Of a stretch of DNA of 64,000 nucleotides, positions 3,445-8,525 are shown in pieces. A program made the translations under genes and the position numbers. The notes below the pieces were generated by a model. It worked only from the letters and a program-made list of their open reading frames with translations, searched no databases and was not told where the DNA came from. How positions within the stretch are numbered: the stretch's first letter is position 1; each line of letters starts with the position of its first letter. The stretch is taken from assembly GCF_058153355.1 (NCBI RefSeq), contig NZ_CM177019.1; one strand, written 5' to 3'.

Positions 3445-6960
<3,516 letters not shown>

Positions 6961-6985: not shown

Positions 6986-7080
6986 GATGCGCTACGCTTA
7001 TCAGGCCTACGAGACTCCTGCAATATTTTGAATTTGCATGATTTTGTAGGCCGGATCAGACGTTAACGCCGCATTCGGCA
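6986..7080. repeat. Pair of REP palindromes (BIME-like) downstream of gyrB
   Basis: gatgcgctacgcttatcaggcctac (6986-7010) and inverted copy gtaggccggatcagacgttaacgccgcattcggc (7047-7080). Confidence 0.7.
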
Positions 7081-7092
7081 AGAAGCTATAAG

Positions 7093-7126
7093 AAAAGGGC
7101 GGAGATCATCTCCGCCCTTTTTATTT
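7093..7126 (+). terminator. Intrinsic terminator candidate after gyrB
   Basis: GC stem gggcggag / ctccgccc followed by a T-run (ctttttatttc). Confidence 0.65.
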
Positions 7127-7199: not shown

Positions 7200-7598
7200 A
7201 TGGGGCTTTTTGATGAAGTTGTCGGCGCCTTTCTGAAAGGCGATGCGGGGAAATATCAGGCTATTTTGAGTTGGGTTGAGGAGCAGGGTGGCATTCAGGT
7301 GCTGTTGGAAAAACTGCAAAGTGGCGGCTTAGGTGCCATTCTCTCAACCTGGTTGAGTAATCAACAGGGCAATCAGCCGGTGAGCGGCGAGCAACTGGAG
7401 TCGGCGCTCGGCACAAATGCGGTGTCCGATCTCGGGCAAAAACTGGGTGTAGATGCCAGTACGGCTTCCAGCTTGCTGGCAGAGCAACTGCCAAAGATTA
7501 TTGATGCTCTCTCACCGCAGGGTGAAGTGTCTTCGCAAACCAATAACGATCTGCTTTCCGCAGGCATGGAACTGCTGAAAGGGAAACTCTTCCGCTAA
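7200..7598 (+). CDS. yidB: DUF937 family protein YidB
   Basis: 132-aa product from ATG at 7200 (MGLFDEVVGAFLKGDAGKYQ); the ORF-track start at 7191 is an upstream GTG. Confidence 0.85.
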   Translation: MGLFDEVVGAFLKGDAGKYQAILSWVEEQGGIQVLLEKLQSGGLGAILSTWLSNQQGNQPVSGEQLESALGTNAVSDLGQKLGVDASTASSLLAEQLPKIIDALSPQGEVSSQTNNDLLSAGMELLKGKLFR

Positions 7599-7600
7599 GC

Positions 7601-7640
7601 AAAAGGGGAGCATGCAACGCGCGTTGCATCCCCCTTTTCC
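7601..7640. other. Near-perfect 40-bp palindrome / hairpin between yidB and yidA
   Basis: aaaaggggagcatgcaacgc | gcgttgcatcccccttttcc, centred at 7620/7621. Confidence 0.5.
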
Positions 7641-7712
7641 CTCGGGTGTTGTACTGATTTTTGAGCGGAATCGCGTTAGCATGGGTCAGGAACCAATCTA
7701 CCTGGGGAACTC

Positions 7713-8525
7713 ATGGCTATCAAACTCATTGCTATCGATATGGATGGCACCCTTCTGCTGCCCGATCACACCATTTCACCCGCTGTTAAAAACGCGATTG
7801 CCGCAGCTCGCGCCCGTGGCGTGAATGTCGTGCTAACGACGGGTCGCCCTTATGCAGGTGTTCACAACTACCTGAAAGAGCTGCATATGGAACAGCCGGG
7901 CGACTACTGCATTACTTATAACGGCGCGCTGGTACAGAAGGCCGCCGATGGTAGCACCGTGGCGCAAACCGCTCTCAGCTATGACGACTACCGTTTCCTG
8001 GAAAAACTCTCTCGCGAAGTCGGTTCTCATTTCCACGCCCTGGACCGCACCACGCTGTACACCGCCAACCGGGATATCAGCCCTTACACCGTGCATGAGT
8101 CGTTTGTGGCGACGATCCCGCTGGTGTTCTGCGAAGCGGAGAAAATGGACCCCAATACCCAGTTCCTGAAAGTGATGATGATTGATGAACCCGCCATCCT
8201 CGACCAGGCTATCGCGCGTATTCCGCAGGAAGTGAAAGAGAAATATACCGTGCTGAAAAGTGCGCCGTACTTCCTCGAAATCCTCGATAAACGCGTTAAC
8301 AAAGGTACAGGTGTGAAATCACTGGCCGATGTGCTGGGCATTAAGCCGGAAGAAATCATGGCGATTGGCGATCAGGAAAACGACATCGCAATGATTGAAT
8401 ATGCAGGTGTTGGTGTGGCAATGGATAACGCTATTCCTTCGGTGAAAGAAGTGGCGAACTTTGTCACCAAATCCAACCTGGAAGATGGCGTGGCGTTTGC
8501 TATTGAGAAGTATGTGCTGAATTAA
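7713..8525 (+). CDS. yidA: HAD-family (Cof-type) sugar phosphatase YidA
   Basis: 270-aa ORF; HAD motif I in IAIDMDGTLL; C-terminal GDQENDIAM motif. Confidence 0.93.
   Translation: MAIKLIAIDMDGTLLLPDHTISPAVKNAIAAARARGVNVVLTTGRPYAGVHNYLKELHMEQPGDYCITYNGALVQKAADGSTVAQTALSYDDYRFLEKLSREVGSHFHALDRTTLYTANRDISPYTVHESFVATIPLVFCEAEKMDPNTQFLKVMMIDEPAILDQAIARIPQEVKEKYTVLKSAPYFLEILDKRVNKGTGVKSLADVLGIKPEEIMAIGDQENDIAMIEYAGVGVAMDNAIPSVKEVANFVTKSNLEDGVAFAIEKYVLN

Follow-up and report, generated by a model that had tools for sequence, protein, structure and literature searches.

A conserved hairpin-forming inverted repeat between yidB and yidA borders the control region of yidA on its upstream side

Results

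The window analysed here is a stretch of 64,000 nucleotides (contig NZ_CM177019.1 of RefSeq assembly GCF_058153355.1). The genes gyrB, yidB and yidA follow one another on its plus strand (Table 1), and positions 7400–7800 are 100% identical to E. coli 2013C-4282. The spacer between yidB and yidA contains an inverted repeat of 38 bp (7601–7638), which starts 2 nt past the yidB stop codon and is without annotation in the records examined. The left arm has the layout AAAAGGGG-AGC-ATGCAACGC, and the right arm, which joins it without a central spacer, reads GCGTTGCAT-C-CCCCTTTT. The two arms form 18 Watson–Crick pairs and a 3x1 internal loop (3 vs 1 nt). The right arm ends in a run of four T residues (7635–7638), and the GC-rich base of the stem has A4 on one flank and T4 on the other. 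A repeat search returned the structure in two pieces, 7607–7620/7621–7634 (14 nt, 86%) and 7601–7608/7631–7638 (8 nt, perfect), with the 8-nt pair 2 nt out of register with the 14-nt pair. A preliminary description of the sequence had placed a near-perfect palindrome of 40 bp here, with arms that differ at a single position. The palindrome is real, but its extent was overstated, as 7639–7640 (CC) lie outside the repeat. The single difference also does not hold: without gaps, 7601–7620 matches the reverse complement of 7621–7640 at 14 of 20 positions.

Table 1. Positions of the genes and sequence features around the yidB–yidA spacer
Feature	Position	Strand	Remarks
gyrB	end at 6960	+	upstream of yidB
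yidB (DUF937/YidB family; RefSeq 'YidB family protein')	7200–7598	+	Pfam PF20159; stop TAA at 7596–7598 abuts the hairpin
Left arm: box L (AAAAGGGGAGC, 7601–7611) and inner arm (ATGCAACGC)	7601–7620	+	sequence, repeat search, folding
Inner hairpin GC(A)-CGC / GCG-(U)UGC	7611–7629	+	variable 5-nt loop (7622–7626, consensus register); RNAalifold, 12 sequences
Right arm: inner arm GCGTTGCAT (7621–7629) and box R (ATCCCCCTTTT, 7628–7638)	7621–7638	+	sequence, repeat search, folding
Rest of the yidB–yidA spacer	7639–7712	+	linker of variable sequence and fixed length (26 nt, first T of box R to TTGAGC), then conserved block
Conserved block TTTTTGAGCGGAATCGCGTTAGCATG	7657–7683	+	kept across at least 12 enterobacterial genera, independently retrieved
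Cra-like box	7665–7680	+	in block 7657–7683
Candidate −10, TAGCAT	7677–7682	+	in block 7657–7683; predicted promoter position
yidA Shine–Dalgarno GGGGAA	7704–7709	+	after the 5' leader
yidA (Cof-type HAD sugar phosphatase; RefSeq 'sugar-phosphatase')	7713–8525	+	downstream of the element

We scored Watson–Crick palindromes (+1/−2/−2, loops of 0–6) over the 64-kb window and over 30 dinucleotide shuffles. The site scores 14, a value that was reached in none of the 30 shuffles. Scores of at least 12 were obtained at two sites in the window, the element and a hairpin at 7092–7125, compared with a mean of 0.13 in the shuffles. The palindrome is thus far beyond chance. Only the strict Watson–Crick score singles out the site. 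Folding energy does not (35 windows at −20 kcal/mol or lower vs 16–27 in the shuffles), and neither does a pair-count scan of the window. As a 42-nt RNA, the element is predicted to fold with −20.6 kcal/mol on the plus strand (z = −4.5) and −21.9 kcal/mol on the minus strand (z = −4.1).

The element is unique in the window and occurs at one place per genome in the 1,940 genomes with a match. It is single-copy, lacks similarity to the REP consensus and has no REP-derived Rfam match at the site, and the earlier remark that it is not REP-like was borne out. A search of the window against Rfam with E-values up to 10 gave no match overlapping the palindrome; the nearest is a chance-level twister-P3 match ending at 7582. 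The search of 20 related loci (E-values up to 0.05) gave no match at the element. The spacer between gyrB and yidB, by comparison, carries REP-type elements at 7003–7045 (minus strand) and 7049–7123 (plus strand), with a match to Rfam ES036 (CssrF) of 52.5 bits (gathering score 37.6) and a naRNA4 (CssrE)-like match below threshold. Downstream of gyrB, 7092–7125 is a textbook symmetric hairpin followed by T5 (AAAAGGGCGGAGATCATCTCCGCCCTTTTT), which is probably the gyrB terminator.

The near-perfect palindrome is a minority allele, and K-12 and most strains carry additional changes in the left arm. Of 5,426 complete E. coli genomes, 180 have the 50-nt allele without any difference. K-12 differs from the window at 7605 (G to A) and 7613 (T to C), and other strains and species differ at 7604, 7616, 7618 and 7619. 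All Escherichia polymorphisms of the element therefore fall in the left arm, at six of its 20 positions (7604, 7605, 7613, 7616, 7618 and 7619). The right arm has no substitutions among the Escherichia sequences compared, and one strain has a C-run that is 1 nt shorter. The invariant right arm continues into the sequence downstream. The 92 nt from 7621 to 7712 show no mismatch to K-12, while gyrB, yidB and yidA differ by 3.8%, 6.8% and 4.1%, respectively. The same stretch has one mismatch to E. whittamii, with flanks that are 7–20% different. It is better conserved than the surrounding coding DNA, and the centre of the palindrome marks the edge of an unusually conserved block that reaches to the yidA start codon. 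Open reading frames of 70 aa (plus strand) and 43 aa (minus strand) were rejected as candidates; their start ATG is made by the window allele (ACG in K-12), and the frames are not conserved. Between 6801 and 8400, the window strain is 3.8–6.8% diverged from K-12 over gyrB, yidB and yidA, and identity of at least 99% over 7400–7800 is found in 16 of 5,423 genomes. Judged by these comparisons, the window strain represents a divergent lineage or a recombinant segment here.

The fold was compared in genera that have yidB beside the element. Loci of Pseudocitrobacter, Kluyvera and a further relative were fetched by exact-protein look-up. A contig search with YidB peptides gave, among the matches listed, four Escherichia loci and two distant betaproteobacterial loci. 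The loci from Pseudocitrobacter, Kluyvera and the further relative share the arrangement AAAAGGGGAGC-N-CGC, a 5-nt loop and then GCGTTGCATCCCC(G)TTTT. RNAalifold was run on 12 sequences, which comprised Escherichia (five species-level lineages), Kluyvera, Pseudocitrobacter and three further contigs. In the consensus, the stems GGGGA/UCCCC, GCA/UGC and CGC/GCG enclose a variable 5-nt loop, and the 3' side has two bulges of one base each. This is not the register implied by the preliminary description. The consensus register is paired in 96.1% of cells (A–U extension included), compared with 83.8% for the palindromic one, and the inner ATGCAAC/GTTGCAT pairing is possible in the window allele only. 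Between 11 and 15 pairs are kept in the clade with yidB, and the stems are nearly invariant. The loop is the most variable part, with eight different sequences. None of the 11–15 pairs has changed on both sides in this clade, and there is no covariation. Four of the seven one-sided changes lead to G–U pairs on the plus strand, and three break pairs. In the more distant genera Pluralibacter, Entomohabitans, Franconibacter and Mixta, unrelated hairpins stand directly 3' of the yidB stop codon, and the one in Entomohabitans is a canonical terminator with UUUUCUAUUCU.

Metagenome contigs were scanned with the conserved block upstream of yidA (TTTTTTGAGCNNAATCGCGTTAGCATG), which left out E. coli with its one T fewer. 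The scan gave 66 loci, 61 of them distinct. An exact look-up of YidA assigned loci to Klebsiella pneumoniae, Citrobacter freundii, C. amalonaticus, Raoultella, Leclercia, Scandinavium, Kosakonia and Cedecea. Most of the scanned loci have no yidB, and gyrB followed by REP-like elements or by its own terminator lies directly upstream. Escherichia, Kluyvera, Pseudocitrobacter, Pluralibacter and Cedecea have the gene, and K. pneumoniae, C. freundii, Raoultella, Kosakonia and others do not have it between gyrB and yidA. In the loci without yidB, both ends of the palindrome persist, as box L (AAAAGRGGAAT) and box R (ATCCCCCTTTT). Both boxes are retained in at least 12 enterobacterial genera, with or without yidB. 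Box L is found in most of 57 distinct enterobacterial sequences, and box R is kept in 57. One metagenome locus (L085) has box R and lacks box L. The A-run and the T-run are among the most conserved positions, and the A-run of box L, which is the U-tract of the minus strand, is better conserved than the T-run of box R. The check for conservation across the Enterobacteriaceae that had been proposed at the outset thus gave a positive result for the boxes in at least 12 genera and for the fold in Escherichia, Kluyvera and Pseudocitrobacter. In another metagenome contig (L039), the boxes are Klebsiella-like, the yidA leader resembles that of E. coli and AAG stands in place of the yidA ATG; this contig is probably an assembly chimera.

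The distances around the boxes are nearly constant. The inner segment between box L and box R measures 16 nt (±1), with sequences that are unrelated between lineages. From the first T of box R to TTGAGC, the distance is 26 nt in 37 sequences and 16 nt in 18, with variable sequence in between. The two spacing classes differ by exactly 10 nt, or one helical turn. The whole spacer of 115 nt, leader included, is also of near-constant length. The gyrB terminators of the scanned loci are entirely unlike one another. They turn over and the boxes do not, and this provides an internal control showing that the boxes do not behave like ordinary terminators. In Cedecea, a canonical yidB terminator precedes the boxes.

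Locally complementary segments follow box L in most lineages, and their design varies: GGGGAATC/GATTCCCC in C. freundii, GGAATCCGC/GCGGTTCC in K. pneumoniae, GAGGAATTCCTC in Raoultella and GGGGGAT/ATCCCCC in Kosakonia. Some lineages show complementarity past the boxes with differing sequences (CTAC/GTAG and CCAG/CTGG). One paired change, GGGG/CCCCC to GAGG/CCTCC, separates two of the metagenome loci (L033 and L040). The sole variable pair across genera, position 6 of box L with box R, is weakly associated (GC 37, AC 12, AT 5, GT 2). Shuffling the inner segment had a marginal effect on the folding energy, with a mean z of −0.68 (plus strand) and −0.60 (minus strand) and p of about 0.05 over 16 lineages. 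In 58 of 67 sequences, the fold of the minus strand is the more stable one, with a mean difference of 3.9 kcal/mol; in K-12, the values are −27.3 (minus) vs −15.6 kcal/mol (plus).

The U-rich tract of an intrinsic terminator is typically 6–8 nt long, consists mostly of U and directly follows the stem. The element has a stable, GC-rich RNA hairpin 2 nt past the yidB stop codon, and its fold is conserved in three genera, as expected for the hairpin part. The tract is UUUUCCCU on the plus strand and UUUUGCUU on the minus strand (UUUUUGCUU on the minus strand of K-12). On the plus strand it is short, with UUUU followed by CCCUC. Tail scores are 3.25 (plus) and 3.5 (minus), compared with 4.5 for the gyrB hairpin. 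We combined hairpin and tail in the classical discriminant, which reportedly goes back to d'Aubenton Carafa et al. 1990; the formula was used with modern energies, and the scores are approximate. The gyrB hairpin scores +41.6 on the plus and +32.1 on the minus strand. The window allele gives −7.4 and −4.4, and K-12 gives −49.9 and +2.5, respectively. The K. pneumoniae and C. freundii versions are negative on both strands. A simple terminator scan did not call the element. It is a weak terminator at best. The preliminary description had seen no clear U-tail, and this is roughly right, with four U residues before CCCUC and scores near or below zero on both strands against about +42 for the gyrB hairpin. 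In the curated Term-seq list of Adams 2021, the interval from 3,868,543 to 3,881,679 is empty and the gyrB terminator is missing as well, so that the list is uninformative here. The TERMITe supplementary files do not mention yidA and yidB.

The sequence between the element and yidA contains further candidate control sites (Table 1). No usable −35 was found ahead of the candidate −10. The Cra-like box matches the published Cra consensus at 9 of 12 positions, which is not above chance on its own. We also considered box R as an anti-Shine–Dalgarno sequence for yidA and rejected it, as it does not co-vary with Shine–Dalgarno variants on inspection. The gene yidA (hadM) is reported to be repressed by Cra (PMC8085971). 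It is also reported as a target of the small RNAs OmrA and OmrB near the ribosome-binding site (bioRxiv 10.64898/2026.06.26.734639). By inspection, the yidA leader AATCTACCTGGGGAA (7695–7709) is complementary to the 5' end of OmrA/OmrB, which fits the reported repression. These reports account for part of the conservation of 7641–7712 and not for the boxes.

Discussion

The element is real and conserved, an inverted repeat that can form a hairpin and that borders the control region of yidA on its upstream side. Tentatively, we take it to be a weak symmetric intrinsic terminator or insulator hairpin that ends yidB transcripts, with a right arm that is at the same time part of the region upstream of yidA. 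RNA polymerase leaving yidB would produce an RNA that folds into a GC-rich, bulged stem. This stem would be GGGG.G.AUGCAAC/GUUGCAUCCCCC in the window allele and GGGGA-GCA-CGC/GCG-UGC-UCCCC in most relatives. The short U-run UUUU (7635–7638) would follow, and part of the transcripts would end at about 7636–7642. Termination at this position would shield the separately regulated yidA promoter from yidB transcription and from gyrB read-through. Since the stem has A4 and T4 flanks, the minus strand also has a hairpin followed by UUUUGCUU, which could stop antisense transcription out of the yidA promoter region. The right arm (box R, ATCCCCCTTTT, and GCGTTGCAT) probably also serves yidA expression as DNA, because it is part of the ultra-conserved block upstream of yidA. 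Part of the element thus probably belongs to the yidA control region too. A pure RNA stem should constrain both arms, and the restriction of the Escherichia variation to the left arm would count against it.

The same observations can be read at the level of DNA alone. Here, boxes L and R, together with an extra inner copy of box R in many genera, would be sites for a putative yidA regulator or contacts of RNA polymerase, and the hairpin potential would be a by-product of their inverted arrangement. We regard this as possible, if on the unlikely side. The sequence of the boxes is kept irrespective of yidB, in genera that have their own gyrB terminator and in which these terminators turn over completely. 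This is not predicted by a simple terminator. Box R persists where box L is missing, and the right arm lies in the 92-nt stretch without changes to K-12 amid coding DNA that is 4–7% different. The distance between the boxes is nearly constant despite unrelated inner sequences, and the distance from box R to the core block takes two values that are one helical turn apart. A candidate −10 without an acceptable −35 is expected of an activator-dependent promoter, and yidA is known to be regulated, by Cra and by OmrA/OmrB. However, the boxes matched no known factor motif, and no footprint or ChIP evidence of protein binding at the site was found in the literature searched. The motifs that we take to be those of CsgD, RcsB, NarL, sigma-54, sigma-E, a MerR-type spacer and CytR do not fit or fit the window allele only. 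Half-site centres about 25–27 bp apart would be awkward for a single dimer. The step of 10 bp may go back to one ancient event, and the fixed spacing is not specific to the boxes, as the whole spacer is near-constant in length. Moreover, the inner arms of the clade with yidB are conserved and complementary around a hypervariable loop, which a protein site does not need. The readings as a terminator and as a DNA site are not mutually exclusive. In one combination, the two ends of the palindrome would be a deeply conserved cis-regulatory module of the yidA promoter, bound by a putative regulator, and would have become the yidB terminator hairpin secondarily in Escherichia. In such a module, AAAGGGGNAT would occur in inverted and direct copies, spaced in helical phase with the Cra-controlled core. 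We consider this combined version unlikely. The preliminary description had proposed a protein-binding dyad or an RNA stem rather than a simple terminator; the retention of the boxes without yidB is compatible with that, but the role as terminator or insulator stays our first choice for E. coli.

Two further explanations appear improbable to us, and about equally so. The minus strand could be the functional one, with the hairpin and UUUUG as the terminator of a short divergent or antisense RNA that runs from about 7688 towards yidB. At about 90 nt, such a transcript could act as a small regulatory RNA in its own right. The more stable fold of the minus strand in 58 of 67 sequences and the better conservation of the box L A-run are consistent with this, as is UUUUUGCUU in K-12, which yields the only positive terminator score of the element (+2.5). 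A promoter-like TTGATA-17-TAGATT at 7723–7695 on the minus strand overlaps the yidA start and is directed at the palindrome. Only Escherichia and Klebsiella-like sequences have it in recognisable form, however, and its −35 falls on an Ile codon that varies freely (ATC/ATT/ATA); the small RNA was rejected as a candidate on the grounds that its promoter is not conserved. The strand bias could also come from G-to-A changes that build up in the left arm, which is less constrained. Neither strand gave a match to an Rfam family, and the literature searched does not mention such an RNA. The list of Adams 2021, insensitive at this locus, has no 3' end for it. Alternatively, the element may have no function of its own. 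It would then be a fortuitous palindrome or the decaying remnant of an old terminator carried along beside a conserved promoter region, or else its inner part, ATGCAAC-GCGC-GTTGCAT (7611–7630), would be a CytR-type operator. The rarity of the near-perfect form (180 of 5,426 genomes), the six polymorphic positions of the left arm within the genus and the absence of covariation in the clade with yidB would be explained in this way. On the other hand, a palindrome score never attained in shuffles, two boxes kept in at least 12 genera and stems conserved around a varying loop in Escherichia, Kluyvera and Pseudocitrobacter all argue for a function. The inner repeat resembles inverted copies of what we take to be the CytR octamer, GTTGCATT. 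The CytR-like left half is absent in K-12 and most strains (T7613C), and no flanking CRP sites were seen.

If the element is a terminator or insulator, as we tentatively prefer, it would be the boundary between the gyrB–yidB transcripts and the separately regulated yidA (Cra, OmrA/OmrB). A boundary of this type is useful for operon annotation but is ordinary. What is unusual is that the conservation of the box sequences does not depend on the gene in front of them. Klebsiella, Citrobacter, Raoultella, Kosakonia, Leclercia and others retain the boxes upstream of yidA at a near-fixed distance, which points to an uncharacterised input into the control of a conserved sugar-phosphate phosphatase. 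A single stretch of DNA can close one unit and at the same time form the upstream region of another.

The element can be compared with three known systems. It resembles the upstream operator and activator sites of enterobacterial sugar-metabolism promoters, such as those of the Cra/FruR regulon, to which yidA has been assigned, in that a conserved promoter-proximal block follows the boxes at a distance that is nearly constant apart from the 10-bp step. As in such sites, the sequence and not the pairing alone is conserved, and the motif occurs in inverted and direct copies. Unlike them, the boxes do not fit the Cra consensus and lie 30 bp upstream of the Cra-like box (7665–7680), and a half-site spacing of about 25–27 bp is atypical of operators. 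With REP/BIME elements, it shares the form of an imperfect palindrome in an intergenic spacer near gyrB, and real REP-type elements are present 500 bp upstream, but it is single-copy and without similarity to the REP consensus. The long, bulged stem (about 30 nt, with a 3x1 loop or two bulges) sets it apart from intrinsic terminators, as do the four U residues followed by C, the classical score around or below zero and box sequences that are kept across genera even without an upstream gene to terminate. With intrinsic bidirectional terminators, in turn, it has in common the position right after a stop codon, the GC-rich stem base with A4 and T4 and a stable hairpin on both strands. The gyrB hairpin (7092–7125, AAAAGGGCGGAG...CTCCGCCCTTTTT) has the same outline as the element.
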